Assembly: GCA_051362555.1 (NCBI GenBank)
Contig: CM120648.1
Coordinates: 18,968,587-19,032,586, forward strand
DNA from: Lingula anatina
Taxonomy: Eukaryota; Animalia; Brachiopoda
DNA: 64,000 nucleotides
Reading direction: 5' to 3'
Position numbers and translations under genes: made by a program. Positions 9,876 through 39,101 of the stretch are shown here, in pieces. The first letter of the stretch is position 1. Every line of letters begins with the position of its first letter. The notes beneath the pieces were generated by a model. It ran no database searches and had not been told where the DNA came from. It worked only from the letters and a program-made list of their open reading frames with translations.

Positions 9876-10509
9876 TAAGTCGTAATTTTATCAGTTGAAT
9901 TCGTTCCAAATATGTGGGAAACTTATTTATACACATGAATGACACAAAACACACACATACACACGCGCGCGCACGCACACACACGCACACACACAGAAAT
10001 AATAAAAATTAAACGTTCACTCGAGAAAAATGTTGGACCTTAAGTATGATCTCAAAATCATGGCGATGGTCGATCTTTACATCTACATGTATTTAACATA
10101 CTTGTACAGTGTATCCACTCATTTTCTACAGTGTGATACATGTACTATCGAAAAAACTTGCCAAGTTAAATCATTATAAAATCATAATAATGGCCGTAGC
10201 GGGATCTCGCGGCTTCGCAGCCTAATGTTAAAGACACAGTTCACTCCAGGGAAATGACGAAGGCTTGTCATTGGAAGAGTTATGTACTGGGAGGGTGATT
10301 TAGTAAAAGGGCAAGTCACTGGAAAAGGGTCAGTCGCTTAAATAAGCAATTCACAGGAGGGATGAGGTGATTGCACATTTAGTTTTCATCATTTGTCTGT
10401 TTTATTATTGTGACATTCATTTTAGCTGAGCCTATAGTGTCTGAGTTGTAGAACATGTCATTTGCTTGATATGTTAATATCTGTGTCACTGTGATTGGAT
10501 TATATGTGA

Positions 10510-11583: not shown

Positions 11584-11740
11584 TGAGGAATCACAAGTTT
11601 TGAATAATTTCAAAGCAGTTCTTAACAAATAAGAACTATGCTTGCAGTGCAGTTTATATAAAAGGGAGTATGTTTTCTATTGGTAAATGATGCATCAGGT
11701 TAAAATTATTGTCCGATGGTACCTTTTCTTTCCTTTTACA

Positions 11741-14700
11741 GATTGGTGTGTGGGTTTGGCGGTGCTCTGTTCATTTATTTCCACAGGAAAATTATCCACT
11801 TTATACGAAAACAGAGGAAATTGTCCTCCTTTCTCCAGAAGAAGTAAGTACCAGTTACAACAGGAGTCATCCACTGTATGTGACTTACAAGAGGGTAATT
11901 ATATGACGGTGTATAGTACAAGTAAGTATCAGTTACAACAGGAGTCATCCACTGTATGTGACTTACAAGAGAGTAATTATATGACGGTGTATAGTACAAG
12001 TAAGTACCAGTTACAACAGGAGTCATCCACTGTATGTGACTTACAAGAGAGTAATTATATGACGGTGTATAGTACAAGTAAGTACCAGTTACAACAGGAG
12101 TCATCCACTGTATGTGACTTACAAGAGAGTAATTATATGACGGTGTATAGTACAAGTAAGTACCAGTTACAACAGGAGTCATCCACTGTATGTGACTTAC
12201 AAGAGAGTAATTATATGACGGTGCAACTGATTTGCACATGTATATGTCACATACAATAGACCACAAGTGTTTGTAGAGCTGCTTCAAGCATTTATAGGAT
12301 GATTACACTTGTATTTTGCTTACAACACAGTGAAGCATGTTAATATAGATGAGCGAGCAATTATCCCATTGTTGCTAACAGTAAATGTTTTTATGATTGT
12401 TATCACATAAGGAAATGTTTGGGATAATTATGTGAAAAGGACATAGTGAAGATACCTTTTATTAGCATTCAGTTTATTCCCATTTTTTTGTGTGATATAA
12501 TGTGTAGTAAATATGACATGTTTTATTTATTTCAGTCGATTCATCTATCCAACTGTGATAACATTTTATGTGTAGATATAATGTGTAGTAAATATAACAT
12601 GTTTTATTTATTTCAGTTGATTCATCTATCCTACTGTGATAACATTTTATGTGTAGATATAATGTGTAGTAAATATGATGTGTTTTATTTATTTCAGTTG
12701 ATTCATCTATCCAACTGTGATAACATTTTATGTGTAGATATAATGTGTAGTAAATATGATGTGTTTTATTTATTTCAGTTGATTCATCTATCCAACTGTG
12801 ATAACATTTTATGTGTAGATATAATGTGTAGTAAATATAACATGTTTTATTTATTTCAGTTGATTCATCTATCCAACTGTGATAACATTTTATGTGTAGA
12901 TATAATGTGTAGTAAATATAACATGTTTTATTTATTTCAGTCGATTCATCTATCCTACTGTGATAACATTTTTGATATCCACTCTATCCTTTCCCTTGGG
13001 GCTGGGGCAGTATACAGCTGGAATGGTAAGTTTTCTGGAAACATTTTTCACAAGACAAGGGCTATCTCAATTGAAACAAACAAATGATTAGTTTGTCCGA
13101 TTTTTCCAACACAACTTACCAAACCTTTTCTGCATTAGTAATAGATACCTCAAAATGTACTGAGATTATACTGGAGAAAACTGCAGTGGTATCAAAGCAT
13201 AAATTACTTTCCACACACTTTCAGTTACATCATGGAGAAGTTCAGTGTACTTTCACTTCATACACCAAGAAGACCACTGTTCTTTTATTTGACTTACTTG
13301 AGAAGTCCACTGTACCTTCACTTAAATCACTGAGAAGTGCACTGCTTTTAATTTGGCTTACTGAGAGTCCAGTGTACTTTCAGTTAACTCACTAAAAAGC
13401 CCACTGTTCATTTTATTTGACTTACTGAGAAGTTTAGCGTACTTTCAGTTTTCTCACTAAAAAGTCCACTGTAATTTCACAGGCCTACCCAGCTACCAGA
13501 CTAGGCACCAAATGTACACATTTCACAGTATGATACCCGGAACAAATTTTGAGATGAGATGCACCATTTTCCAACCCCCGATGCACACCTTGAAAACAGG
13601 TATTGTGGTCCAATCTACCGGTGAATTAGGGATCATTGGGTGCTGAGTCTGGTAGTTTGGTAGGCCTGTTTCAGTTAACTCACTGAAAAGTTCAATGTAC
13701 TTTCAGTTAACTCACCGAGAGGTTCAATATTCTTTCAGTTAACTCACCAAGAGGTTCAATATTCTTTCAGTTAACTCACCGAGAAGCTGTGAATGAGTTG
13801 TTCAGTAACTTCACATGGTCCACAGGGAAAGCAGAGAACTTAGATCTGGACCAACTAGAGGTCCTCAGTCACTGGAATCACCCGGACACCAGCGTCTATG
13901 TCACACTGACTTTGTTTATTATTATACAGGTGAGATTTACTGGCTGTATGAGAAGACCAGATATCAACCCCAGTCTAATTGTATGAAGGTTTTAAGAGTT
14001 CCAAATTGGAAAATATATCAGTTTTAACTTAACTTTAAAATATGCCGTGTGTCAATGTAAGGTTTAAATATAAATATGGATATTTTAGATATATATAATT
14101 TTAAATCTTTGTGCACTGATTTTTATGGTGTGGTATGATCTTTCAGGTTCAGTAAGGTACAGTGTAATAATGGAGTGTTGTATAGAGTGATCTCACACAA
14201 ACAGTTAACTTGTAATAATAATGGATTACATTTGTTTCCAGTTTGTGACAGCTGCTTTGGCTGGTTCTCTCCCCATTCCTGCTGGAGTGTTCATTCCTGT
14301 CTTCACTATAGGTAAGTTGTGTCATCATTTCAACACTTACTGTTGCCTTGTCAACTATTCCCCATGCTGCGGACTGCGCAATGACATATTAAAGGAAAGC
14401 TTTTTTAATAACATTTCATTTTGTTTTGTTGTGTTTGTTAAAATTGATAACATGACTGTTCAGCAGTAGGTATGAGCAGTTTGAGTTCAGGTACATTGAT
14501 AATTCTTTATTCATTTGAATAATTTTCATCATCCTTGAATAATAATCTACTAATTAATTATATATGGGTGGAAACTGAATTTAAAAATGATGCAAATGAA
14601 AGAGAATTTTAATAATTATGCTGTTCCGTGAAAAGTTTAACTTGAAAAGCACTGACCTTGACCTACAGTGACCTTGACCTACAGTGACCTGTCCACTCTG

Positions 14701-17052
14701 GTCTCACAGTGTCACACCTGAAGATCGTGACAGCTGTTGTTGTGGCTGAATGCCCATTTTCCTTCACTATGCTGCCATCTTCAGGTTAAAATTAGCTAAG
14801 AGAATGTTCTTAATTATTCCCAGGTGCTGCCTTTGGTCGTTTTGTAGGAGAGTGTTTGGCTACGTGGTTCCCCAGTGGAGTGAGGATGGGGGATCAGGTG
14901 TCTCCTATAGTCCCTGGAGGATATGCTGTAGTAGGTAAGTGTATGACTACATGGTATCCCAGTGAAGTCAGGATGGGAGAGCTGGTGTCTCCTATAGTAC
15001 CTGGAGGATATGCTGTAGTAGGTAAGTGTATGACTACATGGTATCCCAGTGAAGTCAGGATGGGAGAGCAGGTGTCTCCTATAGTACCTGGAGGATATGC
15101 TGTAGTAGGTAATATCATGTAACTCAGCAGTACTCTCTATCACTGTTAAGATTCATATTAGAGTCCTCTACAAACCCATGATAGTAACTACAGGTATGAA
15201 AATTGATCACTTCAATTATACTTGATCTAGTGTGTCAGGTATTTTAAATATTTGAAAAAAAAATGAAAATTATTATTCCAAAATGAGTTTTTCAGTACAT
15301 TATTTATTAATAAGTCAGCTGTACATGTATCTTAATGCAGCAGCTATTGCTCTTTAAGCTGGCTGATATCGCATTGGAAAAAATGTCAGTAGTATGTTCC
15401 TTTCGATGTATTTTTGCTTACATAATCATAAAATATGCGTGTATCATTTGTGTAGGAGCTGCTGCTTTGGCAGGAAGTGTTACCCACACCATTTCCACCT
15501 CTGTGATAGTGTTTGAGCTGACGGGACAGATATCCCACATTCTACCTGCTGTGGTAAGACAACTGATTGTTTGATAAATGTGATAGTGGTTGAGCTAACG
15601 GGACAGATATCCCACATTCTACCTGCTGTGGTAAGACAACTGATTGTTTGATAAATGTGATAGTGTTTGAGCTAACGGGACAGATATCCCACATTCTACC
15701 TGCTGTGGTAAGACAACTGATTGTTTGATAAATGTGATAGCGTTTGAGCTAACGGGACAGATATCCCATATTCTACCTGCTGTGGTAAGACAACTGATTG
15801 TTTGATAAATGTGATAGCGTTTGAGCTAACGGGACAGATATCCCATATTCTACCTGCTGTGGTAAGACAACTGATTGTTTGATAAATGTGATAGTGTTTG
15901 AGCTAACGGGACAGATATCCCACATTCTACCTGCTGTGGTAAGACAACTGATTGTTTGATAAATGTGATAGCGTTTGAGCTAACGGGACAGATATCCCAT
16001 ATTCTACCTGCTGTGGTAAGACAACTGATTGTTTGATAAATATGATAGTGTTTAAGCTAACGGGACAGATATCCCACATTCTACTGGCTGACAAGATTGT
16101 TGGTCTTTGAAAAATTTTAATATATTTAATCAATTTTATAAAGCCAACACTTATTTTACATTTTCTATATATCATTTGTATACTCCAGATAGCAGTGTTG
16201 ATAGCCAATGCAGTCGCCCACAGCCTTCAGCCGTCCATTTATGACAGCATCATCCAGATCAAAAGGCTGCCTTACCTGCCCGATATAATCCCCACCAAGT
16301 CCAGGTAATATGTGATATCATCCCCACCAAGTCCAGGTAATATGTGATATCATCCCCACCAAGTCCAGGTAATATGTGATATCATCCCTACCAAGTCAAG
16401 GTAATATGTGATATCATCCCCACCAAGTCAAGGTAATATGTGATATCATCCCCACCAAGTCCAGGTAATATGTGATATCATCCCCACCAAGTCCAGGTAA
16501 TAAGTGATATCATCCCTACCAAGACTAGGTAATATGTGATATCATCCCCTCCAAGTCTAGGTAATATGTGATATCATCCCCACCAAGTCCAGGTAATAAG
16601 TGATATCATCCCTACCAAGTCTAGGTAATATGTGATATCATCCCCTCCAAGTCTAGGTAATATGTGATATCATCCCCACCAAGTCCAGGCAATATGTGAT
16701 ATCATCCCTACCAAGTCCAAGTAATATGTGATATCATCCCCACCAAGTCCAGGTAATATGTGATATCATCCCCACCAAGTCCAGGTAATAAGTGATATCA
16801 TCCCTACCAAGTCTAGGTAATATGTGATATCATCCCCACCAAGTCCAGGTAATATGTGATATCATCCCTACCAAGTCCAGGTAATATGTGATATCATCCC
16901 CACCAAGTCCAAGTATTATGTGATATCATCCCCACCAAGCCCAGGTAATAATTTCAGTACAAAACATTTTTTCTGTACGTGAAATAATCCATGTCAAATG
17001 TGTTATCATATCCTTCTTGCAGCCCATATTATGTACTTGAGAAGGACTTCAT

Positions 17053-17121
<69 letters not shown>

Positions 17122-20100
17122 TGTCTGGTGTCTTTGCAGCACTTACAATGTGTTTGTGGAGGACTTCATGATCCGTGACATCAGGTTTATCAGCTATATC
17201 GCCACATACCAGGATGTGAAGAATCTATTGGAGACATCCAAGTTAAGGACATTCCCATTGGTGGATGCCCCAGGTAAAGTACACAGACATGTGTGGTAGC
17301 ACTGGTAAAGTTTTGATTCTTTCCTACCAATCAAATGGAGAAGTGCCTGAAATCCCAATCAGGAATCTCTAATGTGTTTTTAACCAGGGATGGAACCATG
17401 GTTCGTGGAAGCAGTGTTGAACCAGTAAGGTTTTTTGTTTAAAGCATAATATATGTATGAAAGCTCTTCTGTCTGCCCTTAATTTGTCCTGTCTGTTATA
17501 CCTTGAACATAGCACTGGCATAACAGGAACTCTGCTAGATTCTAAGACATGAGATTTAATAACTGAACTATATGCACAGTTATGTAGTCTTCTTACTGAG
17601 TGTTATATTCTTGGATGTCAGTTTTACATGATATTATCAGGTTGTATTGATGTATTTCATTTTGGCACTTTCCTTTGATATTCTAATGAGCTTTTTCATC
17701 TAACAGCTTAAACTGAAACACATTAATTTTTAAGTTTTAGGACACTAATATATAGTTGGGTGTGTACGGTATAATGCTATGCCATTCAGAAGACAATCAT
17801 ATCCATTATGTTGTGTATATTTCCAGAGTCCATGATTCTCCTTGGGTCTGTACAGAGACTGGAGCTGGATCTGCTACTGGAGGCTCAGCTTGGAAACAGC
17901 GCCGCCTGGCAGCAGTGGAAGAGGCATTACATAAACGGCAACAGGAAGAGGAGGAGAGGAAGAGAGCCAAGGAACAGCTGGAGAAGAGGAAGTCCCAAGG
18001 CGATACCGAGGGGACGCGACCAATGGCGGCCTGCAGTGGAGATATGTTGAACGCTGTGAAGGTCCACCGTCAGCCGTCGGCCAGGTTTACGGTGACCCCT
18101 GCCGCCAGCAAGGTGGACAGTGGTGGACAGGTCCAGTTGAAGCTGGACTCCACGGTAAACAGTGTGTGTGTGTTTGTGGATTTGAATGATAATCATAGGG
18201 ACCATTCCACAGATTTTTGGAGCAATCTATCTCCCAGGGGAGCCTCACTAAATTACTATCAACTTAACCGGCTTTAGTGTCTTTCAGGCCTAGTAAAGCT
18301 GTTAGGGGGTAATTATCTTTACCCCCTAGCTTATTTGGTGGCTGTGACAGACATTTAAGCCAGTTATTTTAAAGCAATTTATTAAGACTTCCCAGGGATG
18401 GACCGATCTAGGCATGAGAACCCAGTCTTAATCTTTATTAACCAGAGAGTTGTGATAATATATGTGAAATGATATTACTACATTATCTCTGCCATCATTC
18501 CAGCCACCAGAACAAACAGCTAATGGAGACACGCTGAAACCACACAAGTACACCAAGGCACCACAGAGAGGGATATTAAAGAAGAGTCCCCGTCCCAGCC
18601 CCCGGGCTAGTCCCAGGGCCAGTCCTAAAGGAAGTCCTCAGTCTTCACCTCGCTCTAGTCCACCAGGGTCTGCCAAGACAAGCCCCACACCCAGTCCACA
18701 GTTAGGTTAGCCAGCTCTGGGCAACTACACTGGTCTGAAAGTTAACTTTTGATGGATTAAGAATATGGCTAAGTTAAAGGACTGTCTAGAAAATATTCCA
18801 GTTTTTGTTAAAATCACACTGCAATTTCTCAGAAAAAAAAAGAATGGTAGGCCTATGGTGTATATAATTTGGTATAAAAAAACGAATGATCATGAATAAT
18901 TATTTAAAATTACTGAATTAGAGTAATGTGATTATTAAGTAATCTTTACATTAGATTGATACAAGATGAGGTTAAAAATTGCTTACATTTAAAAAGATAA
19001 TTTTAACCCTCTATAACAGGTACCTATATAGTATATACACCCTTAGGTTTATTTACCATCACACTATTGTTTTCCATGTACCTTTCTCTGTTTATTTTGA
19101 TAATGAAGTTTAATTGATTTTGATTTTACAGAAAAGAAATTCAGCATTGGGCTGGCAAAGATTTTCAAATCTCGAAGTAAAGAAAATATCGCGGACAGTA
19201 CGGCTTCCGAAGATGATGAAGCTCAGGTAACTTTGGCAACAAACTGATAAACAGCATGGAATATTTTAGTTTAAAAGTCAATATTTACAGGGTTCTGTAT
19301 TCTACTTATGAAGGATTAGCAGTGTGAGGACTCAAGTATATCTACATTATATTATATTATACATAGCATCGTGATTATCATAAGAGACATATATATATAT
19401 ATCTATATCATATTATATATAGCATCGTGAGGGTAGTGGCTAAGTTTACATTTATCAATTTATCTGTGTTTAATATTATTTTTTATTTATTTATATCTTT
19501 TGCATGTGCTGTAAGTCTGCATACATGAAGTACCAGTTTGAAGTGAAAAGTTAATACTTGAAGATATATAATATATATATAGTAATAGAGTGACCATGAT
19601 GTAAGGTTTTAGAGTATGATACTGATATTTAGGTCATCCAGCACTTGGGTTACACCATTAAAACTACCTGAAGGTCAACATACCTGTATCTACCAGGTTT
19701 GTCAACTGTTTGCCCTCTGAGTCAGTACAACAGTTAGTGTGTGGTATTACACCATTAAAACTACCTGAAGGTCAACATACCTGTATCTACCCAGGCTTGT
19801 CAACTGTTTGTCCTCTGAGTCAGTACAAGTGTCCTCCCAAGGAGGCTTGACATCATCGACTAGTAGCTAAGAAAAAAAGGACGTAAGCGACCTTTAAGAT
19901 TCTTTGTGAAACTCGACTTAGTGACGTAATGACTTGGTAACCAAGGTCTTAGTTAGGGAAACCGACCTAAGTTTTTTTGTGAAACGGGGGCCTGAAGGTC
20001 AGCATACCTGTATCTGTCCAGGCTTGTCAACTGTTTGCCTTCTGAGCCAGTATAACAGTTAGTGAATGATATTCCCGTGCTTTAAAGTCAACTTCTGTGT

Positions 20101-23100
20101 GCAAGTTGCACTTAGTGATGCACTTAGTGATTCATTCTCATGGTCTGTCTGTTTTGGAGAAATGAACATCTTGACTGGAAATGAAATGGTCTTGGTATCA
20201 TTTGTATGTATGCTATCATATTATATTTCACTATTGACAGGATTCCTCCCTGTATGAGTTGTATGTATGTTATCATATTATATTTCACTATTGCCAGGAT
20301 TCCTCCCTATATGAGTTGTATGTATGTTATCATATTATATTTCACTATTGCCAGGATTCCACCCTGTATGAGTTGTATGTATGCTATCATATTATATTTC
20401 ACTGTTGACAGGATTCCTCCCTGTATGAGTTGTATGTATGTTATCATATTATATTTCACTATTACCAGGATTCCTCCCTGTATGAGTTGTATGTATGCTA
20501 TCATATTATATTTCACTATTACCAGGATTCCTCCCTGTATGAGTTGTATGTATGTTATCATATTATATTTCACTGTTGACAGGATTCCTCCCTGTATGAG
20601 TTGTATGTATGCTATCATATTATATTTCACTATTGACAGGATTCCTCCCTGTATGAGTTGTATGTATGCTATCATATTATATTTCACTATTGACAGGATT
20701 CCTCCCTGTATGAGTTGTATGTATGTTATCATATTATATTTCACTATTACCAGGATTCCTCCCTGTATGAGTTGTATGTATGCTATCATATTATTTTTCA
20801 CTATTGCCAGGATTCCTCCCTGTATGAGTTGTATGTATGTTATCATATTATATTTCACTATTGACAGGATTCCTCCCTATATGAGTTGTATGTGTGCTAT
20901 CATATTATATTTCACTATTGACAGGATTCCTCCCTATATGAGTTGGACCCTGAGTCAGACAGGTTCTTACACAGGCGTGGCAAACATGCCCATGTAAAGT
21001 TGGTAAGAAGATGGCTGCTGCTTAACAAACCACTTTTTATTTGATCATGTGACTTGTTATCTAGTCATGTGACCACAGCTTTTGACCACATGTTTTGCCA
21101 TTGTTTCACAACTTTTGACTGCAGTGTGTAGGTAATTTAATTTTTGTAGCAGATTGCTGTGATTGTGTTTTATCATAACCCATTTTATGTTTGTAGTTTC
21201 AAGCAAGACTGTTGCCATTGTGTGGCTTAGTTTTAGTTTTCTTATATGGTAAAATTTTCAGAGCTGCCCTTGTGTCTGTAAGTATAGCTTGATGATTGCA
21301 GTTGTCAAAGTGTGCAGGTTGTTATCAATTTTCTGTTTGGATTTTGCTAAGAATAATATTGGAATGCTGTTGTTTTGCTGTGATCATTTTTGAGGATGAG
21401 ACAAAGGCATGACTACAGGTAATGTTGTTATAGATAGACTTAGGAAACTATAGAGAAATACACTTATATAGCTGATTAAAAAGAACAGAACCCATTTGTC
21501 AAAATGTAATGAAAAGTACATTCTAATCATTTTGTAGGGGTGTTCTAACAAAAACAGCATCTGCACCAAAAGCTGCTTCTGTTTTGATATTTTTTTCTGC
21601 TCGCAGTGAAAACCAATATGTTTTGTCTACAAAATCATTTTCATTTGTATTGAAGCATATAATTTGAGACTCTGACTGCTTGGATTGATATACAGTTTTA
21701 TTTTATAAAAAATTGTATTATTATTTTCTTTCTTGTCATCAATTAATAGTCTTCACATCCAAAAGAACTTCATAGCAACCAAGATGAGACACTATAAAAC
21801 CTGGACTGGTTTTCTAACTGTTCATGTAGTTCAAACCCCATAAATGTGTCTGGCATATTTAATAAACGACACATGCAGATATCAAAGAATCGTCAAAAGT
21901 TGGAGCACATTTACTCTCCCTAAAGGTTGCCGCCTTAGTGCAGAGTATCAATTTGTGAAATTGTCCTCTCTTGTTGTTCACTGGCTGTGGTAATTGAGTT
22001 GTGTTATCTTGTAAACTGTTATGAGGGGAATTATGCAATGGCTGCTGCCCAGAAACCTATTAAATATATAGATAAACACTGATTTATAACATTCTCAACA
22101 GATGATATTGTGCAAACAATTCTGTTGGGAAGTATAAATTGGCATATGAACAAAAACCAGTTGAAAATCAAGATGAACATGCACTGATATTGACAGGGGT
22201 CAGCTGCTCTCTGCTTTCTCTGTGCACCAGTTTATAATTACTAGTTGTACATATTTGGGGAAGTTCCTTAACTGACTGCCACTCCCCCACCACTCCTTCA
22301 CAATGGTGATCTTCATCTGAAATCTACTAATGAGACTATCATGTTTCTTACTACTATCTATACTTTCCTGTGTACATCATTAATACCTTGCATGTTGAGG
22401 CCTGGTGGCCTAAAATATCTTATGATTTATGGTGGTTCATCCATTGGCATGCTTTAATAATATGTCTTTATGTTTACTAACACCTTTATTATTTGATTTC
22501 AGTTGTCAAGAAATACCCTTCCTCCTTACTTTCTCTTTAAATTTTATAGTACAGGGATGGGAGCATCCTCCTTCAAATTTTGAATTACAGGGATGGAAAT
22601 TTCCCAAGGTTTTAGCAGAAAAGACAACTACATTTTGTTAGAAATGCTACAAGAGTAGGAGACGTCAGTGTTGAAAAGTAGGTGCAGGTTCCTTTCTCTC
22701 CAAACATTGTTTGTTCCCATCCCTGTACATGATATGTAGCAGTTAAAACACCATTAAACCAGCACTTTGATGTGCAGCATATTTAAGACACCATTCCCAG
22801 AGCCTATCGCACTAACTTTGGATCGGTTCAGGGGGATTCCCACTAAATTGCTATCAAATTAAGCAGTTAGATGTCTCTCACACCCACTGAAGCTGTCAGG
22901 GGGTAATTAACTCATTAAGCAGCTTAAGTAGGTGTGCCAGACATCTAAGCTGCTTAAACTGAAAGCAATTTAGGGAGAAACCCCTTGGAGATAGTTCAAT
23001 CTTCTAAGATCGATCTAGGCATGGTAACCCAGTCTTATACCTTATTAGTCAACTCTCACTAGTGGGCTAGATTTGGTCTTAAAGTGCAATTTAAGTTCAC

Positions 23101-26100
23101 ACGTGATCTTACATGATCTTAATCATTACTTTACAGCAGTAGTCTTGAAATGGACTGAATCTGCTTTTAAGACCAAAAATGATCTAACATCTACTTAAGT
23201 GGTCAAGCAGTTTCCTCCCCTCAATGGGGGATACACAATGGGGGATACCTCCCCTCACAAAAGAGGACACCTCTGCTCACAATAGGAGAATGTGTAAGGG
23301 GAGACAACTTAATTGGCTGTCAGACTAGAAATGGTCTTACTCATGTTTTAACATCATGTAAGACTATTTGTGTTCTTAAATTGCACTTTAAGACCAAATC
23401 AAGCCCACTAGTGTCTGTTATGTGCATGTGCAGCATATTTAATACCTTATCAGTCAACAATGTACCTTGATAGCATGTGCATGATATCCATACCCTTATA
23501 TTTTCAGATCACATTATTGTCAAATACACAATTTTCCAAATATTTATTTTAAAGCAAGGCTTAAAGTGATGGATTGTCATATGCACATATTAATTGTTGA
23601 TGTTTAAGGATGCCCAGTATGTAGAACATTATTATTAACAGTGGATTTCTATTAATATTGGGTTGAAAGTTACATTGCACTTGCTGTTTCTTAGATAGTT
23701 TAATTTGCAGTCAACAAATTTAGGTATTACACTCTCATGGATGTAATCAACATTGATACAATATTTATTTGTCAGAAAATTATTTATTTTTTATTAATTT
23801 TATTATTATTATTTTATTATATATATATATATATAATTTTTTTTTTTTTTTTTGGCTCAGAATGTTCTATTTCTTGGCTTGTACTGAAATGTGAGTGTAA
23901 ACCTAGTATTTGTTGTCATGGTAATTCTTTCTGTTGCATGTTTTTCTTCATTTTCCTTTCCCTGCATTTTCTCCACTAGAGGTCTCTTCTAGATGATTTC
24001 CCCGAGCAATATACTGACTCTGTGCGAAGTGGCAAAAGTGTTCAATTTAATGTCATGGACTTACAAGAGGTAAGTTTAACATCAGGACTTACAGGCCTGA
24101 AGCCAGGGGGTTTGGGGTTCAAAGAACTCCCTTTTTGCTGGGAAAAGGTCCTCTCTGGGGAAAGTTTTATCTAGGTACACGGGGTTTCATGATTAAAGGT
24201 CCACTTTTTCATAAAAAAGACCCCCCCCCCCCTCCTCTTGAAATAGCTGGCTATGGGACTGACTTTCAAGAGGTAAGTTTCATGTAATAGACTTACAGGA
24301 GGTAAGTAATTGAATTATTCTTCTGAAACACTGTCACTACCCATGTCAGTAATTATCATTGCTGTTTTAAAAGTACTAAGAATTATAGTTATGTGACAGG
24401 CACTGCATCCAGGAGCTAATTAAATGATATCATGGTGGGTCAGAGGTGAAGTGAAGGTCAGGGAGGGTCAGAGGTGAACTGAAGGTCAGGGAGGGGTCAG
24501 AGGTGAACTGAAGGTCAGGGAGGGGTCAGAGGTGAAGTGAAGGTCAGGGAGGGGTCAGAGGTGAACTGAAGGTCAGGGAGGGGTCAGAGGTGAAGTAAAG
24601 GTCAGGGAGGGGTCAGAGGTGAACTGAAGGTCAGGGAGGGATCAGAGGTGAAGTGAAGGTCAGGGAGGGGTCAGAGGTGAAGTGAAGGTCAGGGAGGGGT
24701 CAGAGGTGAAGTGAAGGTCAGGGAGGGGTCAGAGGTGAAGTGAAGGTCAGGGAGGGGTCAGAGGTGAACTGAAGGTCAGGGAGGGGTCAGAGGTGAAGTA
24801 AAGGTCAGGGAGGGGTCAGAGTTGAACTGAAGGTCAGGGAGGGGTCAGAGGTGAAGTAAAGGTCAGGGAGAGGTCAAATGTTATAAAGGTCAGGAAAGAG
24901 GCAGGTGTCCATCACAGGGTCAGTTTTGGGTCAAAAGACCAAGAAACGTGTCAAGAAAAAAGTTGTATTGAGAGTCATTTAACAATTGGGCATATAGCAG
25001 TTGAGTTTCTTTACATGTAATAATATTTATTAATTATGATTTTATAGAGATAAACATTGTTTCCTTATTTTTTGAGATTTCCTAGGCTTACATAATATTT
25101 CATATTTAAAAGCTTATTTGAAGGTTGCTTTTTAGAGGTGACTGAGTAAAATGCTTTTCTTGCTAGCTTATAAATGTGTAATTATATTTTAGATGTTTAG
25201 CTTTCCTAAAGAATATTGTATCAGTTGTGGTGATACCCTAGTAGTATTATATCCCAGACACTGGTTTAGGGGTGTATGGACTACAGGTTTTCTGTCTTGT
25301 AATTTTGTCTGTCCAATAAAATTACTTCACTTAGTAAATGTATTACAAAACAATTGGTCAGCAGATTGTATTAATAACTAAAATTTTCAGACTTTTTTTA
25401 AGATGAAGAAAAGGTAAATGGTGTTAGTGAATATTATTGATATTACTTTGTATTATGGTAAGTTGATTTCAGGAATGTCTCTAGTATGGTGTGATGTGTG
25501 ATATATTTGATATGTTTATCATGTGTGTGTGTTGTGTTTAGAATTTATTTTGTCATGATTATAGAACTTGCAGTGATGAGAGCCACAGTGTCTTCACTAG
25601 AACAGCTTGCAGTGAACTGACACATGGTTACTACTTTAGAGAGTATCTAGAACCAGTTTCAGAAAATGACTTAAAAGTTTGCTTTTCTTTGAAGTCTTTA
25701 TTGCATTCAACATAAATTCTGAATTAAAGACGAGACTTTTAACTTAGCTGAAATCACCCTACCTGGTTAACAATAGAATGTTATTTTAAAACCCGATATT
25801 TTATTTGAAAGGTATAGGTGATGAGATCAATAACCTTTATAAAGATGTTGCGTAGTTTATGTATTAAAATGGCACATTTCTATACTTCAAAAATAACTGA
25901 TTTCAAAAAGTTATCATTCTGTCATTGGATTATTTCTCTTCATTTGCAAGCCTCCACAGAGAGTGATAGATTTGAGTGAAGAAGAGGTAAAGTACCAGTA
26001 GCATGATGTGTGCTGTGTTCATTTATAAACTGACATCAGAGAAGACTTACATCCGCTGTGTTATGTTAGAACAATTAGGCTTCGTTCACATGCAATGTCT

Positions 26101-28242
26101 ATTTTCTAAATTCTATTTTCTATTCGCGCTATCTTATGATCACGGTCTGTGCACTGAATATCCCGCGGCGTAATTACTGGCAGCGCGAGCCAGTTACTAT
26201 AAGTTACTATAAGTAACTGGCTCGCGCTGCCAGTAATTACGCCGCGGGATATTCAGTGCACAGACCGTGATCATAAGACATACCGAAAATAGAAAATAGA
26301 ATTTAGAAAATAGACATTGCATGTGAACGAAGCCTTAAGTAGTTTTTCTTCAATCAACAGCTAATATTTGGCAGCAAATATTGCCTCATTCCATGATGTA
26401 GATACTCATGAGAGACATTGAAATATTGGAGGTAATTATTAGCTGCCAGTATTCACTGGTCATTGAAGAAAAATGTCTTTATTCTTAAACTGACATATTG
26501 TTAATGTTGTTTAGTTCAGTCAAACCCAACCAAAGAATTTAAAACCATGTTCAGAAGAGGCAGATGAAGGCGGTTATTTTGACAGAAGCTTCGAAACCAG
26601 AAAGAAAGTGACCAAGTGTATAATAGGCCAATTTATCTGCTGCTTCTTTAAAAATATATGTTACATTTTGTTTACTTATTGATGTCAGGGGCATATAATA
26701 AGGGTTGAAATGTCAAATAATTGACATAAAGTGTGACCTATACCATCCCATCCCCAGGTACTCATAGTAGTTAAGATGTGAATTATGGTTTTATCCTAGA
26801 TATTCAATATTAGTACTTGAACCTAACTCACACTGCTTCATTTTGACAGCCTTAAGTCATGCCAAAAACTATAAGTATAATAGTATAAATATTTCACAAC
26901 TGTCACTATGAATGAAAATCATAATATTTAATCAATAACAAAAATAAAAAAAAAATAAGTCTTGAGATTCAATTTTGTAAGAAACTTACATAAAAGTGTA
27001 TCACATTCTATTGAATTACAACTTTATAGGCTAAGAATTGGTTAAATTCCTTCTTGGATCACTATAAGGCTTTTGCAGTTAAGATGGAAGGCTTTATTAT
27101 ATGAAGCAGGGTCTGGCTCTGTAGATATTAATGACAACCTGTTTTATTGCTCTCTGTAGATGTAAAATGACACAGTTGTTATTACACTGGGTCTGGGTCT
27201 GTAAATTCCATTGCTGGTCAGTTTTATTTCTTCCAGTAGTCATAAAATAGCACAGCTCTCAGTGGCAGATATTAAGAGGGGTGTCAGGGGGGTCCTGACC
27301 CCTCCCCTCCCCTTTGATTACTGAGAAAAAAATCACACCTATAATTCCTCTTGAAATTATAATTTTGTGTAGCTTAATCATAGTTTTAAACTATACCAGA
27401 TGTCACCATTCACCAAATAAAATACCAAAATATCAGTGTTTGGGTGTAGTGAGACATCTTTACAATGTTTTTTTTAAACATGGTGTGACATTGTTTTGAC
27501 AGTGGTGTGGTATATTTGGACATAGTGTGACATTGTTTTGACAGTGGTGTGGTATATTTGGACATAGTGTGACATTGTTTTGACAGTGGTGTGGTATATT
27601 TGGACCTAGTGTGACATTGTTTTGATGTTAGTGTGATGTTGTTTGGATGTTTTGACATTTTTACAGTTTTTTTTTTCTCGGACATGGTGTGACATTTTTT
27701 GACAGTGGTGTAATATTTTTGACAGTAGTGTGACATTGTTTTGACACTGATGTTTTTTCTGTAGCAAAGACAGTGGGAGGAAGAGCAGTTGAAATGTCAG
27801 GTGAAGTTTGAAGAGGCTCAGATAGACCCCGCCCCCTTCCAGCTAGTGGAGAGGACTTCCTTACAGAAAGTAAGATGAAAAAAAAACAGAACATTTAGAA
27901 AATGCATGGCTGGTTTTCAAGAATGTTCATTTTATCTGCATCTCTGTCTTTTACATAAATAAAACTTTCCAAAATTCAATAATGACTGGGGAATTGAAAA
28001 AAGAGAGGATCATTTAATCAAAATAAAATTTAGCATCAATGCAGAGGAATCTGTCGAAGTGTTTCAGCTTATTCTTGGAAGAAATGGATCCATCATAATG
28101 GCATGGGAGAACTGAATTGTACATGCATTCTTTACAGTACCTAAGTAGTTAAGACTTCACCGTTTCACTTCTTTCTCACTATGTGGTTGTGGCTATGTTT
28201 CAGGTTCAGGTGGAAGTGAGGGAACGGTCGGATAGTGAGGCT
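11741..28242 (+). CDS. CLCN2: ClC-2/ClC-a-like chloride channel, C-terminal two-thirds, apparently defective. Exons 11741-11842, 12941-13025, 13771-13929, 14242-14311, 14824-14934, 15456-15553, 16189-16304, 17140-17273, 17827-18154, 18504-18705, 19132-19226, 20925-21002, (23980-24069), 25951-25986, 27765-27869, possible terminal exon 28204-28242
   Basis: The spliced translation gives [115 protein letters not shown]1 (VEDFMIRD...[18 protein letters not shown]), [18 protein letters not shown] and [14 protein letters not shown]. Phases fit except for a -1 frameshift at 17894-17896. Confidence 0.92.
11841..12222 (+). repeat. 78-bp tandem repeat, ~5 copies, each starting with the splice donor AA|GTAAGT
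   Basis: Direct periodicity, seen as the 26-aa pseudo-repeat in ORF 11687. Confidence 0.95.
12494..12971 (+). repeat. 81-bp tandem repeat, ~6 copies, each with a splice acceptor plus the first ~30 nt of a CLC exon
   Basis: TTTATTTCAG|T(C/T)GATTCATCTATCC recurs every 81 bp. Confidence 0.95.
13240..13785 (+). repeat. Degenerate ~32-bp tandem repeat containing the acceptor TTTCAG|TTAACTCAC, interrupted by a MITE
   Basis: Near-perfect copies at 13668-13785 and increasingly diverged copies upstream. Confidence 0.8.
13480..13668. mobile_element. Second copy of the CAGGCCTACCC MITE, 5-bp TSD TTTCA
   Basis: Same TIRs as 5665-5946; TTTCA flanks both sides. Confidence 0.85.
14845..15112 (+). repeat. 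87-bp tandem triplication of a CLC exon end plus donor (in frame, no stops)
   Basis: ...[11 protein letters not shown] occurs three times in ORF 14856; donors follow 14934, 15021 and 15108. Confidence 0.95.
15502..16085 (+). repeat. 77-bp tandem repeat, ~7.5 copies, of the last 52 nt of a CLC exon plus donor GTAAGA
   Basis: TGTGATAG...CCTGCTGTG|GTAAGACAACTG recurs every 77 bp. Confidence 0.95.
16282..16950 (+). repeat. 32-bp tandem repeat, ~21 copies, of a CLC exon end plus donor (CCAG|GTAATA)
   Basis: GATATCATCCCCACCAAGTCCAGGTAATATGT periodicity. Confidence 0.95.
18198..18430. mobile_element. Degenerate MITE of the same family as 22786-23035 and 57918-58131
   Basis: Shared 3' end GATCTAGGCATG...AACCCAGTCTTA and similar internal layout. 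Confidence 0.55.
19650..20065 (+). repeat. ~100-bp unit in three copies, with a MITE-like fragment (~19830-19992) between the second and third
   Basis: CCTGAAGGTCA(A/G)CATACCTGTATCT...GTCAACTGTTTG at ~19667, ~19764 and ~19991. Confidence 0.7.
20203..20945 (+). repeat. 57-bp tandem repeat, 13 copies, each with an acceptor (CAG|GATTCC) and a GTATGT donor-like motif
   Basis: Acceptor AGs are spaced 57 bp apart from 20240 to 20924; the last copy runs into the real exon. Confidence 0.95.
22786..23035. mobile_element. PIF/Harbinger-type MITE (degenerate)
   Basis: Imperfect TIRs, TTA-type flanks, and similarity to 57918-58131. Confidence 0.6.
23057..23413. mobile_element. CACTA-like MITE with 3-bp TSD (TCT)
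   Basis: TIR CACTAGTGGGCTAGATTTGGTCTTAAAGTGCAATTTAAG / CTTAAATTGCACTTTAAGACCAAATCAAGCCCACTAGTG; TCT on both flanks. Confidence 0.85.
24436..24892 (+). repeat. 29-bp G-rich minisatellite, ~15 copies (GGGTCAGAGGTGAAGTGAAGGTCAGGGAG)
   Basis: Direct periodicity. Confidence 0.95.
26078..26334. mobile_element. Near-perfect foldback PIF/Harbinger-type MITE with TTA TSD
   Basis: ~120-bp arms GGCTTCGTTCACATGC... / ...GCATGTGAACGAAGCC around a short centre; TTA on both sides. Confidence 0.9.
27470..27748 (+). repeat. ~42-bp tandem repeat directly upstream of a CLC acceptor, containing TTTTGACAG
   Basis: GTGTGACATTGTTTTGACAGTGGTGTGGTATATTTGGACATA periodicity. Confidence 0.85.
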
Positions 28243-28539
28243 TGAACTACATCAACTCATCAGATAGTGAGGCGTAAATAATAATTGCTCATGGTCAGTT
28301 TGGGACAGAAAGGAAAGTGAAGCACATGGAAACTGAAATATTTTATCAGGACATGAAATATGCCAGAAGACAGTGAAGAGAACATTACTAGGAGCTGTGT
28401 ACCAGTAGAGAGAGAGGAGAGTATGAACTCTTTAACATTGGTGCTGTGGTCACAATACTTGGTGTTTACCATGTACCCCCCTCTCACTGCTGACATTATG
28501 CATTTAGGGAGTTATCAAAATAAAGAACAAAGAGATATG

Positions 28540-28890
28540 GCATGTCATGATAGTCCATGACTTGACAGTCAGTGTCATGGTAACCATTGCCATGACAATA
28601 TGCCATGACAGTGCATGACCTGACATTCAGTATATGGTAATTGTTGCCATGACAATATGCCATGACAGTGCATGACCTGACATTCAGTATATGGTAATTG
28701 TTGCCATGACAGTCCATGACCTGACATTCAGTACCATGGTAACCATTGCCGTGACAATATGGCATGACCGTCCATGGCCAGACATTCAGTATCATGGTAA
28801 CCGTTGCCATGGCAACATGGCATGACAGTCCATGACCTGACATTCAGTACCATGGTAACTGTTGCCATGACAACATGCCATGACAGACTA
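28540..28890 (+). repeat. ~45-57-bp degenerate tandem repeat rich in GTTGCCATG(G/A)CAA and TGACCTGAC
   Basis: Direct periodicity. Confidence 0.85.
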
Positions 28891-29069
28891 TGTCGTCATA
28901 TACAGTTACACAGTAACCATTGTTTCAGTTCATAATAATGCCAATATCATTTTATCCATGTTAAATTTATTTGGGTCCTTAAGTAAATAAATACATTGTA
29001 ACTACTGGTGTATGGGGGTGGGGGGGGGGTTCATGCCAAGGCAGTCCTTTTGTACCCAGAGTTTAAGAG

Positions 29070-29322
29070 TCTACTGTAGACTGACCTGTGTAATCATCAT
29101 GTCTTCCAGAAAGGGAGGGGAGACATGATGATAATACAGCTTACTGGTAGTTTACTGTAGACTGACCTGTGTAATCATCATGCCTTCCAGAAAGGGAGGG
29201 GAGACATGATGATGATAATAGAGCTTACTGGCAGTTTACTGTAGACTGACCTGTGTAATCACCATGCCTTCCAGAAAGGGAGGGGAGACAAGCTGATAAT
29301 AGAGCTTACTGGCAGTCTACTG
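29070..29322 (+). repeat. ~80-bp tandem repeat, 3 copies
   Basis: TACTGTAGACTGACCTGTGTAATCA...CCAGAAAGGGAGGGGAGACA occurs three times. Confidence 0.9.
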
Positions 29323-29566
29323 GAAACTCCAAAACTCTGGATGCCATTTTAGTCATATATTTGTATATATATATATATATAAACATTACCATATTTTTTA
29401 TATCTCTTTTTGTACAGACTGCATTATGATTTAAATTAGCTTTTTGAATGGTCAAATGACCCCTTGTTTTCCTTGTTCTGTTTATTTCAGTCATTGGCAT
29501 ATTATCATTATTCATAAATTTCAATTATCACGAAACAGATACAACTGTAACAGTGAATTTCCCTCT

Positions 29567-31371
29567 TAGTCTGGATGACTGGTGCTATATTTTGGCCAAA
29601 TTGCTCAAAATGTGGAAAAAGCATGAAACTTGGCACAAATGTTCTTTGGTCTATACTGATCATTTTCAAGGGCAGTGCCCAAAATTTCAAAGCGTTGCTT
29701 AGCAACCGTTGCTATGGAAGTGAATTTCCTTAGTAACAAGCTAATTAGACCTTTCTTGTCCAGTTTAAATGGTTTAGAAATGCTAATAACTATTTTACAG
29801 GGCATCAGAACTATCACTAGACTATTCAAAAGTAATTAAAACCCAAATTAACCTAAGCCATGATTGCTAGGCAGTATATTACCCTAGCAACAAGCATTTA
29901 AAGTTGCGTTAGTCTATTAAGTAAGGCAAATCTATAATACTAGCTAAGAACTATACTTTTGAGCAAGATATTCATACTTTTAATATACTTACATGCACAC
30001 TAAACTTTACATGGCTTAAAAGACCTCTTTATGAAGAAAATAAGAGTAAGTGGAGAACCTATTTTCTCGGCGAAATGTCAGGAATTGGTAGTAACAAAAG
30101 GTGGATTAAAAATACTAAAAGCAGCTTCTTATCACTTTTGGCAAAGATGAATGGTTCTTTGAGTGAAGTTCAGGAAAATTGCATTTTAACCCCAGACGAA
30201 ATCCTATCACAACCATTATGTCAAAACTCAAAAATTGAAAGAAATTGAAAAACTGTTTTCCATAAAAGATGGTGTAAAAATGTTTTCTTTTTTTACACAT
30301 GATATTATTACAATGATATTATAAATGACATTTGAAATCCCCTTTGTCTAGAGGAACTCGACAAAAAATTAACCTTAACACCAACTTTCTGGGCTAATTC
30401 AGCATCCAAAAGAGCTTGCCATCTGAATGGCTATCTCTTCCCATGGAAGGAAATTGAGCATAGCAATCCAAGAAATAATTGACTCAATTAAACAAGTTAC
30501 CAAACCATCCAGATATTTTTTCGCAAAAATCCTCCAAAGCCATATAATATCACTAGATAAAGGTGTAGGTGAATGGCAGAATATTTAAAAAAAAAACCTT
30601 GAGTACTGATAATTGGGAACTAACATTTAGGAAACAGATCACAAGAAATTGAAGTTTCTCCAATTCAGAATAAATCATAGAATATTCAATACTTATGCTT
30701 ATCTTATGAATTTGAGAATTTTGCAATACTGCTAGGGAAAATATTCAGTTTCTGTTCGTTTTTTGGGATTGTCCACATGTAAAAAATGTTTGGATGTGCA
30801 TCATTTGCCCAGCTAAAGATAATTTAGGTGTGGTCATTGATAGATCTCCAGAGATATTTGTATTTGGGTTTGTGCAAGCATACACTATTTATGTACCTAT
30901 CTTAATAACTAAGAAACATGTGAGTATATGTAGAATGAGAACAGAAAGATGGGAAGGAACTGGAGGGTATGTAAAATGCTACAGAGATACCTGTAAATAT
31001 ATTATTAAATATATATTATTAAATATATATTATTAAATAAATAATGTTTAATACTTGTTGCTAGGGTAATATGCTGCCTAGCAACTGTTGCAATGGTTTA
31101 CTTGGATTTTTAATGTCTTAAAATAATATAGTGATAGTTCTGATGGCTTGAAACATTATTAAGAGCCTTTTTAAATCATTTAAACTGAACAAGAAAGGTC
31201 CAATTAGCTTGTTACTAAGGTAAATCACTTCCTTAGCAACGGTTGCTAAGCAACGCTTTGAAATTTTTGGCACTACCCTTGAAAATGATCAGCATAGTCC
31301 AAAGAACATTTATGCCAAGTTTCATGCTTTTTCCACCTTTTGAGCAATTTTTGCACCAGTCATCTAGACTA
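29567..31371. mobile_element. Non-autonomous Academ-like DNA transposon with ~330-bp TIRs and 3-bp TSD (TCT)
   Basis: Termini TAGTCTGGATGACTGGTGC / GCACCAGTCATCTAGACTA; inverted similarity extends to ~29895 and ~31050. TAG termini, long TIRs and a 3-bp TSD fit Academ. Confidence 0.8.
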
Positions 31372-32381
31372 TCTGGGTTTTAACTGTTGTTTATATTTAA
31401 CAAAAAGAAACAGCACTATGCTGTCAAGTGCAAGGAGCCAAGTTGTTTTAAAATAGGTTGTTCTGTTAAAATAGACCGAACTGTTTTTATACGCTGTGGT
31501 ATACAGTGTTTGTCCACATAAATAGAATTCCTCTCTCTTCTTTAGAATGTCAATTTAATACTTTTGATTTACTGAACAGCTGTGGCCAACAAACATATAT
31601 TATCTCTATCTTATAAAGTATAAGGGTGTGTGTATGTGTGTGATCATTTGTGGATATGTAACAGTATAAGAAACGTTGTGCAGCATAAAATTTGTTAAAA
31701 CTACATAGTCATAGATAGCCTTGTGTATAAAGTTGGAGCCATGATATGTAAAAAATGAAGTCCTCCTTTTCAGATATTCTAGTCTTACATACAGTATGTA
31801 CATGTAGTATTGGGCCAGAATATCACTTGGTTGTTGTGGGATTTTGTACTTTTTATTATTCAGTCAGAAAAATTTCATTAGCATGGTGGGCCTCATATAA
31901 TATGCTTACAAACTTCAGCATTGGTCGATCAAACATTTACATTGTTTATGCATCAATTATGTGCATATGTTATTGTTTATACAGAATGAAGTTAATCCAA
32001 GCCTGATATGCGTATATATTAGTGTTATGCAAGGTGTATTTAATAATAACTAACAGCAGTATTAACTACAGACTTCAGTGCAGTGATTTAGATGGCATCA
32101 TACCAGGAAGTTTATCAACACTTCTGTCTTCTCTGTACTGCTGAGATTTGAGACACAACTGTTGACCTTTGCAATTATTGAAAAATAAATATATTTTTCT
32201 TGAAATACAAGCTATTGTCTGTCTTGATTGACAGTAGACAAAGTTGTACATATATGCTTTAAAGAAGTTGGATGAAAATGACTACTACTGGTAAGATCCT
32301 AAAAACATTACTTTTCATTTGCAATTGAAAAACGATTCCGTATAAACTTTTGTAGTTCTAAGGTATAAGCTAGGGTGATAT

Positions 32382-35300
32382 TTACAAGACTGAAAAGCTT
32401 TTAAGCATACTTTTATCAGCAAATTTTGGAAACAGTAACCTTAAAGATATGAAAATTTTGGATGGTATATCAGTGCTAGTGTATACTTCATATTGCCTAG
32501 TAACAGTTGCCTTGGTGATCTCCAAGGCAACAAGTTCTGGTTCTACTGGCTGTATGGTGTTGTGCCAGTCACTGCCAAACATGCCTACGAATGATTTCAC
32601 CGCTCTCTCCGTCCCTGAAAAGATAACTTTAGGTCGGATTAACTGAACGCAGGTAGAAAGACCAAGGAAATATTTAGTTGTAATTAATTACTTATTGTTT
32701 TGAAATTGAAAAATGATGGATTTAAGTTGGAAATTAGGATTACTGGAAGAGGGCACTGAATAGGTGAAAATACAACCTCTTTCATATCAAATTCACATGA
32801 TAGATATATTTTATGAATGTACATATGAACCAAGCATCGGTGGAGTGTGGATTCCCAGTAACACATAAACCACTTCTACTAGTTTCTTATACGGCTCAAA
32901 TAAAATCAACATGTTAAGGGATAAACTGAATAAATCACTCGTTCTGCCAAAAAAGAGCTTTAGACTGCTCTTTTCTTTAAATTTTTGGTCAAAAACTTTA
33001 TCTACTTTCCTGACCTAGTTTTCTGCCACATTGATATACAGCAGCAAATCCATTCAGATATGATTTTTCGGGTAAAATTAAAAAGTGTCTTTTGGTTATC
33101 ATCTTAGTTATACTACTAAAAACTATATGCTGGCATTTTGGTTAGCTTTTATGGCAAAATGTGCCAGAATTTAAGACTGAAAGATTTATTTACTCCTTTA
33201 TTCCATATGCACCTTTAAATCGTGGAACGCAACTTATTTTGTTCTATGTTCAGTAGTTTCAAAGCTCCAACAGCAAACATGAAGTATTTTATTATTACGT
33301 GTATAATATTGTAATGCTATCTGCATGTTTTGTACAACTTCAAAACGAACTGGAAATTTAGCAATAAAATAACATTTGTGTCATTACTAAAATTTTATCA
33401 GCATTCTTTGGTGGCACCAGCATTCCAATTACATGCAAGCACTGGTAAATATATATAGGTACTTTGTACGTGTGAAATAAGAATAATAATAATAAATACG
33501 ATAACAATAACACATACAAATCACGCTGGACTACCAAAAATTACATAAATTTACTTGTACTTACGTGTAGCTCCTACCATACACAAGGCAACAGACACCC
33601 CAGAGTTATAGAGAGCCAGTTCCTGTACTTACGTGTAGCGCCCACCATACACAAGGCAACATACACTCCAGAGTTATAGAGAGCCAGTTCCTGTACTTAC
33701 GTGTAGCGTCTATCATACACAAGGTAACAGACACCCCAGAGTTATAGAGAGCCAGTTCCTGAACTTACGTGTAGCGTCTATCATACACAAGGTAACAGAC
33801 ACCCCAGAGTTATAGAGAGCCAGTTCCTGTACTTACGTGTAGCGTCTATCATACACAAGGTAACAGACACCCCAGAGTTATAGAGAGCCAGTTCCTGTAC
33901 TTACGTGTAGCGTCTATCATACACAAGGTAACAGACACCCCAGAGTTATAGAGAGCCAGTTCCTGTACTTACGTGTAGCTCCTACCATACACAAGGTAAC
34001 AGACACCCCAGAGTTATAGAGAGCCAGTTCCTGTACTTACGTGTAGCTCCTACCATACACAAGGTAACAGACACCCCAGAGTTATAGAGAGCCAGTTCCT
34101 GTACTTACGTGTAGCTCCTACCATACACAAGGTAACAGACACCCCAGAGTTATAGAGAGCCAGTTCCTGTACTTACGTGTAGCGTCTATCATACACAAGG
34201 TAACAGACACCCCAGAGTTATAGAGAGCCAGTTCCTGTACTTACGTGTAGCTCCTACCATACACAAGGTAACAGACACCCCAGAGTTATAGAGAGCCAGT
34301 TCCTGTACTTACGTGTAGCTCCTACCATACACAAGGTAACAGACACCCCAGAGTTATAGAGAGCCAGTTCCTGTACTTACGTGTAGCGTCTATCATACAC
34401 AAGGTAACAGACACCCCAGAGTTATAGAGAGCCAGTTCCTGTACTTACGTGTAGCGTCTATCATACACAAGGTAACAGACACCCCAGAGTTATAGAGAGC
34501 CAGTTCCTGTACTTACGTGTAGCTCCTACCATACACAAGGTAACAGACACCCCAGAGTTATAGAGAGCCAGTTCTTGTACTTACGTGTAGCTCCTACCAT
34601 ACACAAGGTAACAGACACCCCAGAGTTATAGAGAGCCAGTTCCTGTACTTACGTGTAGCTCCTACCATACACAAGGCAACAGACACCCCAGAGTTATAGA
34701 GAGCCAGTTCCTGTACTTACGTGTAGCGTCTACCATACACAAGGTAACAGACACCCCAGAGTTATAGAGAGCCAGTTCCTGTACTTACGTGTAGCGTCTA
34801 TCATACACAAGGTAACAGAGACACCCCAGAGTTATAGAGAGCCAGTTTCTGTACTTACGTGTAGCGTCTATCATACACAAGGTAACAGACACCCCAGAGT
34901 TATAGAGAGCCAGTTCCTGTACTTAGGTGTAGCTCCTACCATACACAAGGTAACAGACACTCCAGAGTTATAGAGAGCCAGTTCCTGTACTTACGTGTAG
35001 CTCCTACCATACACAAGGTAACAGACACTCCAGAGTTATAGAGAGCCAGTTCCTGTACTTACGTGTAGCTCCTACCATACACAAGGTAACAGACACTCCA
35101 GAGTTATAGAGAGCCAGTTCCTGCCTGAGGACGCCAAAGGTGGTGGTGTGAATTAACAGCGTGGTGTGAATTAGTACATACGCTGTAGTGACTTATTACT
35201 TATTATTATTATATATACAGTCATCCAGAGGAAACAGTTCAAGTCTTATGATGTTTACTGCTATGAAATACGCACACTGGTCTGGAAGAAATACAACAGT

Positions 35301-36565: not shown

Positions 36566-36997
36566 TTACAGTGGTACGTAGATTGCAAAGACTCATTTGC
36601 TTACCTGGATGAGCATATTATTCACATCTCTTTGAAAAGAAAACCATATGGAAGCAACTGATAATATCAAGGAAGGTTTCAATTGTACTAATAACTGATG
36701 ACGTTGCATATTGTTGACGTGCTGGTGCTGACAAGATATTGAATGAGTATATTATCTCTTCTGCCAGCACTATGATGCCAATCTATAAAAAATTATTTAA
36801 TTTGGTATTAGATACTGGTATTTTACCAGAAGTATGGTTAATAGGCACTATAATCCCAATCTATAAGCAAAAGGGAAACATAAATGACCCAAAGAACTAT
36901 AGGCCAATTACTTTACTCAGTTGTCTGGGCAAAGTATTCACTTCTATATTATGTAAAAGACTAACTGATTACTCTGACAACTTTATGCTGTTACAGG

Positions 36998-37255: not shown

Positions 37256-37257
37256 TA

Positions 37258-37270: not shown

Positions 37271-37300
37271 AAAAAGAGGAAGAGACTTTCAACATGAATA

Positions 37301-39099: not shown

Positions 39100-39101
39100 T
39101 A

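Follow-up and report, generated by a model that had tools for sequence, protein, structure and literature searches.

Minisatellites that straddle splice sites are known from amphioxus and from human. In amphioxus, the so-called 'mirage' minisatellites, with units reported at 10–160 bp, are found in Adh3 and the globin genes BflGb6 and BflGb9 (PMC3087553) and in troponin C and PGBD5 (PMC3902484). In human genes, variable number tandem repeats (VNTRs) lie on junctions of F7 (intervening sequence 7, IVS7; 37 bp), IFI6 (6-16), CBS (IVS13), LMNB2 and PDGF (intron 4), and experiments on F7 showed that the identical downstream donors can work yet lose out to the most upstream donor (PMC1557585). Minisatellites also stand at exon–intron boundaries of duplicated human genes (PMC2812944), and a duplication that holds both an AG and a GT can yield an intron (PMC2812944, PMC3265369). 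Here we report that, in a 64,000-nucleotide window of the brachiopod Lingula anatina (assembly GCA_051362555.1, contig CM120648.1, positions 18,968,587 to 19,032,586 of the forward strand; coordinates below count from the first base of the window), eight minisatellites have a splice site inside them; a ClC-2 gene holds seven of these and an HSD11B1-like gene fragment the eighth. Judged from their sequence, these arrays belong to the phenomenon already described as amphioxus mirages and human junction minisatellites; what remains of note is their density, their allele-specific turnover and their excess at junctions. We consider it probable that they are mirage-type minisatellites, by-products of duplication that are tolerated since the exon-proximal site is mostly taken.

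Fifteen ClC exons were modelled on the forward strand between 11742 and 27869, every edge carrying AG or GT; the edges of exons 1–12 are confirmed by RNA, and one exon gives 100% matches to two ClC-2 proteins of Lingula anatina. Tandem Repeats Finder (TRF), run over the whole window, returned 82 rows. The eight junction arrays among them have units of 32–87 bp in 3–23 copies, within the unit range reported for mirages. Four of the eight unit lengths are multiples of 3, numbers too small to speak for a preference for in-frame units. Array-bearing sites in the ClC gene are the donors of exons 1, 5, 6 and 7 and the acceptors of exons 2, 3 and 12, each placed by TRF together with an RNA joint. TRF recovered the arrays that the initial annotation had named from the letters. 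That annotation, which had not linked the arrays to the phenomenon already described, had counted about ten arrays on exon–intron boundaries, of which these eight and two relics stand while a third relic, discussed below, fails.

The donor arrays differ widely in how they divide exon from intron. At exon 1 (11742–11843), a 78-bp unit in 4.9 copies (11842–12223) comprises 2 exonic and 76 intronic bases; GT is kept in 4 of 4 distal copies, each of which is predicted to lead to a premature stop. The 87-bp unit at exon 5 (14824–14934), in 3.1 copies at 14844–15112, is nearly all exon, with GT in 2 of 2 distal copies and both distal donors in frame and stop-free. Exon 6 (15456–15553) carries 7.6 copies of a 77-bp unit (15502–16084) with 52 exonic and 25 intronic bases and GT in 6 of 6 distal copies, and exon 7 (16189–16304) carries 20.9 copies of a 32-bp unit (16282–16950), with GT in 19 of 20 distal copies and higher-order blocks of variants. 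On the minus strand, the array of the HSD11B1-like short-chain dehydrogenase/reductase (SDR) gene (33556–35123) repeats 23.0 times a 68-bp unit made of 58 exonic bases and a 10-base GT..AG spacer; it lies on the donor of an exon, and this donor is placed by homology only.

On the acceptor side, exon 2 (12941–13025) is preceded by 6.0 copies of an 81-bp unit (12484–12972) that keep AG in 5 of 5 distal copies, each predicted to lead to a premature stop. The 32-bp array of exon 3 (13771–13929) spans 13217–13786 in two TRF parts, 13217–13480 and 13669–13786, split by an element at ~13478–13672 that resembles a miniature inverted-repeat transposable element (MITE), with terminal inverted repeats and a second occurrence at ~5665–5945. 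This array, whose genuine acceptor is at 13771, is decayed distally, and AG is present in 3 of 3 distal copies examined. Exon 12 (20925–21002) carries 13.2 copies of a 57-bp unit (20195–20945), with AG in 12 of 12 distal copies. Across the arrays, choice of a distal site is predicted to produce a premature stop nearly throughout, the two 87-bp copies being the exception. Variants among the copies are patterned and form higher-order blocks. In the 77-bp and 32-bp arrays the inner copies are homogenised, sharing a variant base that the genuine exon copy lacks. Terminal microhomology of 3–10 bases is found in 4 of 7 arrays examined.

To follow splicing, we mapped three RNA runs and one DNA run on window positions 9500–21200 and counted joints from at least three reads; the RNA comes from animals other than the sequenced one. 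Among the joints listed, all ten of the GT..AG type fall at exon-proximal sites; they comprise 146 reads, of which 75 cross array-bearing introns. Joint 11843 to 12941, which crosses both the 78-bp and the 81-bp arrays between exons 1 and 2, has 17 reads, and joint 13025 to 13771, over the exon 3 array, has 16. The 87-bp array is crossed by 14934 to 15456 (6 reads), the 77-bp array by 15553 to 16189 (17 reads), the exon 7 32-bp array by 16304 to 17140 (14 reads) and the 57-bp array by 19226 to 20925 (5 reads). Distal-copy joints, including ones at the in-frame 87-bp copies, are absent among the joints listed for this stretch, as is the exon 4–5 joint, and no joint listed there corresponds to a new intron or exon built from copies. 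The initial annotation had suggested that the copies could tune expression through nonsense-mediated decay (NMD) or seed new exons; that suggestion finds no listed joint at a distal copy, though reads of RNA run X12 do fall inside the exon 7 32-bp array. Over the 87-bp copies (bin 14974–15364) depth is at most 0.07, with only 6 proximal reads. As these copies are in frame and stop-free yet show near-zero depth, NMD is unlikely to be what hides them. The same annotation had noted that extra copies always extend into the intron. This is not an independent observation but a matter of geometry: with exons and introns alternating, once the proximal site is used all sequence past the first donor, or ahead of the last acceptor, counts as intron.

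Contigs of run X3, from another individual, cover bins of the 78-, 87-, 77- and 32-bp arrays. Their depth is 2.5 over the 81-bp array and 0 over the 57-bp array, and such contigs show presence, not absence; one of them carries an unmatched stretch of 179 letters before 20916, on the upstream side of the exon 12 acceptor. At the exon 2 donor, X3 has a back-joint from 13028 to 12985 with 23 intervening letters, and these letters together with the exon translate to VSWGVGVLSFP, a peptide present in the database ClC-2 model P0001. A single X3 contig runs from 14244 into letters matching 14136–14152, which by its sequence is a probable duplication across the exon 4 acceptor. The exon 2 donor and exon 4 acceptor duplications are absent from the window, and alleles therefore differ in which junctions bear arrays. 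This individual appears to be without two of the window arrays and to have arrays at two other ClC junctions. The presence/absence variation between haplotypes is seen in contigs of this one run, with one case matched by the P0001 peptide. Arrays at differing junctions between individuals mean that the process recurs, as had been proposed from the sequence; the arrays also vary in age, and one is split by a MITE-like insert.

Compared with amphioxus, the anatomy is alike (PMC3087553, PMC3902484). The Lingula arrays have head-to-tail units that span the boundary, keep AG or GT, give an mRNA spliced at the proximal site, vary between haplotypes and have homogenised inner copies. BflGb6 resembles the Lingula 77- and 32-bp arrays further in that its inner copies are reported to hold variants that the genuine copy lacks. 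The Lingula case differs in that the host is a brachiopod, that seven arrays and two relics crowd one gene and that the set of affected junctions differs between individuals. The human VNTRs likewise place their first unit over the exon–intron boundary and are followed by identical downstream pseudo-donors, with the most upstream donor, or up to two more, being used. They are, however, single donor-side arrays, one per gene, and in F7 site choice was tested experimentally, whereas in Lingula a single gene is crowded with arrays on donors and acceptors alike, and the choice of site is read from sequence and RNA joints. The described route to intron gain has a counterpart in the 68-bp SDR unit, which contains both AG and GT, but no new intron or exon is seen at the Lingula ClC arrays. 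In the literature searched, which left most subscription journals outside its scope, we found neither a report of mirages in Lingula nor a genome-wide junction test; a paper on earthworm metallothionein (PMC12783039) does not bear on the question.

For enrichment at junctions, we took the 13 TRF arrays with a period of at least 16 that lie between the first and last exons of three modelled genes, a set that leaves out shorter periods and arrays beyond the gene spans. Each array was collapsed to one unit, and we calculated how probable it is for a seed as long as this unit to overlap a junction. Eight of the 13 lie on junctions against 1.68 expected (P = 3e-5), and in the short-intron half of the ClC gene, exons 1–12, the count is 7 of 8 against 1.94. 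The other five genic arrays are wholly intronic, and three further arrays are found past stop codons. With introns capped at 400, 200 and 120 bp, P becomes 0.0035, 0.056 and 0.36; short introns thus contribute to the excess but, at the actual collapsed lengths, do not explain it. In the neighbouring C2-domain gene, 0 of 10 sites bear arrays (Fisher P = 0.16 in comparison with ClC). Its junction pattern was the reason for choosing this window, and the period cut-off was fixed post hoc, after inspection, so that what is shown is local clustering and not a genome-wide bias. With 8 of 13 against 1.7, the enrichment over intronic background that the initial annotation had called for is therefore borne out as a local and post hoc result. 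The excess is probably a real local bias in the formation or persistence of seeds, inflated by short introns and by the choice of window.

Decayed arrays extend the picture. A single decayed copy of the ClC exon 8 acceptor (exon 17140–17273) lies at 17017–17053 on the forward strand, with a score that none of the control windows reaches (0 of 1856), and P0001 contains a peptide that matches it. For the donor of exon 13 (exon end 24069), decayed copies with an unrelated insert between them occupy 24046–24307 on the same strand (0 of 1838 controls). Both had been proposed from the letters, at ~17015 and 24050–24307, together with a third decayed donor copy at 17260–17310; that candidate is at chance level, with 217 of 1832 control windows scoring as high. 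Whether more than half of the ClC exons bear an array, as had been claimed, depends on these relics: a TRF array is present in 7 of 15 exons, and the claim stands at 9 of 15 only if the two are counted. A further decayed duplication (0 of 1847 controls), at 28228–28278, covers the stop codon of the ClC gene, which is likewise a conserved edge but has no part in splicing.

Several arrays of the region stand off splice sites. A 29-bp minisatellite in 15 copies (24437–24876, forward strand) is wholly intronic and serves as a counter-example. A 21/42-bp array (27478–27753, forward strand) ends 12 bases before the exon 15 acceptor, its AG lying outside the array, and is classed as intronic. Past stop codons, and off modelled splice sites, TRF also finds minisatellites with units of 84 bp (5076–5244), 57/58 bp (28541–28922) and 81 bp (29068–29322).

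We propose that a small tandem duplication across an exon edge and its splice signal would seed an array, which could then grow by slippage or unequal exchange and later decay. With the spliceosome settling in most cases on the exon-proximal site, the copies would likely be tolerated and near-neutral, and distal-site products, mostly with predicted premature stops, would be removed by NMD. The copies are thus likely to be mostly harmless, and the unrelated units and the decay of some arrays fit unselected turnover, as expected. The idea, raised in the initial annotation, that only those duplications survive which splicing can hide accounts for this tolerance but not for an excess over equally tolerated intronic arrays. 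Since tolerance explains survival and not the junction excess, a real excess would require that arrays arise or persist preferentially at junctions.

Several observations weigh against this account. RNA depth is low, with 5–17 reads per array-bearing intron, which leaves a 95% upper bound on distal use of 16–45%, and distal joints scattered over many identical copies, each with fewer than three reads, could escape listing. In X12, two bins of the exon 7 32-bp array have depths of 3.25 and 1.57, all sense, amounting to an excess of ~1,500 read bases (~10 reads) over what the exon itself would contribute, against 2 proximal joints; the introns neighbouring this array have near-zero depth in X12. 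RNA run X15 has a depth of 1.89 over the 78-bp array. This sense coverage within the two arrays is possibly intron retention or the use of distal donors. The RNA animals may be without some of the arrays, for instance the 81- and 57-bp ones. Terminal microhomology was found in none of the remaining 3 of the 7 arrays examined, and neutral placement accounts for 8 of 13 against 1.7 only if introns are ~200 bp or shorter.

A serious but tentative alternative is that mutation itself is biased to exon edges, either because break or meiotic repair starts in the similar exons and stutters where intron homology ends, or through R-loops linked to transcription and splicing. This is compatible with mirage-type arrays and would supply the step that their tolerance leaves missing. 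The junction excess, both over all genic arrays (8 of 13 against 1.68, P = 3e-5) and in the short-intron ClC half (7 of 8 against 1.94), points this way, as do the arrays of X3 at other junctions and the way X3 diverges from the window right past exon edges, at the exon 2 donor and in the 179 letters before 20916. The duplication over the ClC stop codon, unmatched in 1847 controls and located at a conserved edge without splicing, would fit repair stuttering. The selection of the window for its pattern, the period cut-off set afterwards, the empty sites of the C2-domain gene (0 of 10; P = 0.16) and the P of 0.056 under a 200-bp intron cap all reduce the force of that excess. A wider form of the idea strikes us as doubtful: that in highly polymorphic marine invertebrates an exon-edge process, through stuttering repair at the end of homology or splicing-linked breaks, gives individuals decoy arrays at differing junctions of one gene, and that in certain alleles or tissues these leak enough to cause heritable variation in productive mRNA.

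It is quite unlikely, in our judgement, that the arrays are functional rheostats, in which distal sites would be chosen with a regulated frequency so that some of the transcripts go to NMD or gain repeated exon sequence. GT and AG are retained nearly everywhere, distal choices nearly all lead to predicted premature stops, sense reads fall within the 32-bp (X12) and 78-bp (X15) arrays, and one or two pseudo-sites are used in human IFI6 and CBS (PMC1557585). Yet no distal joint is among those listed, the arrays differ between individuals and consist of unrelated units that decay, retained signals are expected from youth and homogenisation, and the SDR exon that bears one of the arrays is broken. 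That the arrays are assembly artefacts, long-read errors collapsed or expanded, is very improbable. Other anomalies in the window, namely a missing base at 17895 and the incompleteness of the ClC, SDR and chitin-binding genes, would be in keeping with faulty assembly, as would the fact that X3 covers none of the 57-bp array and hardly any of the 81-bp array. Against it stand the patterned variants, the higher-order blocks and an array split by a MITE-like element; moreover, X3 contigs lie over the 78-, 87-, 77- and 32-bp bins, RNA reads fall within two arrays, and copy-derived peptides occur in P0001 and P0002.

The window copy of the ClC-2 gene is itself incomplete: the N-terminal exons and P0001 residues 1356–1407 are absent, and RNA reads pass from exon 1 into an upstream exon that the window lacks. 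In exon 9, near 17895, the window copy is one base shorter than the RNA (7 of 12 and 5 of 9 reads) and X3, and so carries a frameshift. Of the exonic differences private to the window, 4 are non-synonymous and 5 synonymous; among the others the numbers are 1 and 16 (P = 0.03; 26 exonic difference rows, from 40 of 268 rows). The SDR exon, which bears the array, matches Lingula HSD11B1-like proteins but is without its 5' half, about the first 20 codons, including YxxxK, being gone. Exon 9652–9874 belongs to a chitin-binding gene (P0006) whose other exons are absent. Because genes are incomplete, a base is missing and private differences are skewed to non-synonymous ones, the window copy may be a partial duplicate in decay, or part of its assembly may be wrong. 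The full-length database models P0001 and P0002 contain copy-derived peptides, and the arrays are therefore not confined to it.

Other features of the region were recorded alongside. The stretch 9610–35810 looks mosaic, with the chitin-binding first exon (P0006), a fragment of a long interspersed nuclear element (LINE), a 3' ClC-2 portion without N-terminal and penultimate exons and the broken SDR gene, which would fit partial duplication or misassembly. The records of P0006 and of the SDR protein P0004 share a longest contig of 214,775 bases, while those of the ClC-2 proteins give others. A search of the window with two loose-end motifs that might link exon 9652–9874 or the LINE flank to ClC gave 0 matches each. 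Loose ends of the RNA reads point to alternative splicing of the ClC-2 cytoplasmic tail: in X12, 19 reads pass from exon 11 (19226) to letters reading like exon 15 (27765), and in X15 exon 11 is joined to exon 12 (20925–21002), with 11 reads running on into exon 13. By eye, a near-perfect palindrome of ~200 bases in ClC intron 14 (26098–26314) is probably a MITE, and a Gypsy-like long terminal repeat (LTR) retrotransposon (LTRs ~36997–37255 and 45611–45868) lies within a LINE-like open reading frame at 36640–46940. At 53300–60490, a multi-kilobase segment with exon-like pieces is present twice (~53.3–56.3 kb and 56.4–60.5 kb), as seen by eye and in recurring TRF rows.

Taken together, the Lingula ClC-2 gene is a dense brachiopod case of a known oddity and offers a natural system in which to study how, out of up to 20 near-identical sites, a single one comes to be selected. 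It also carries a warning for annotation, as around the arrays both database ClC-2 models omit exons or contain peptides derived from the copies. If the junction enrichment held genome-wide after correction, it would reveal an undescribed bias in the origin of tandem duplications, and the duplication route to intron gain would become measurable in populations.

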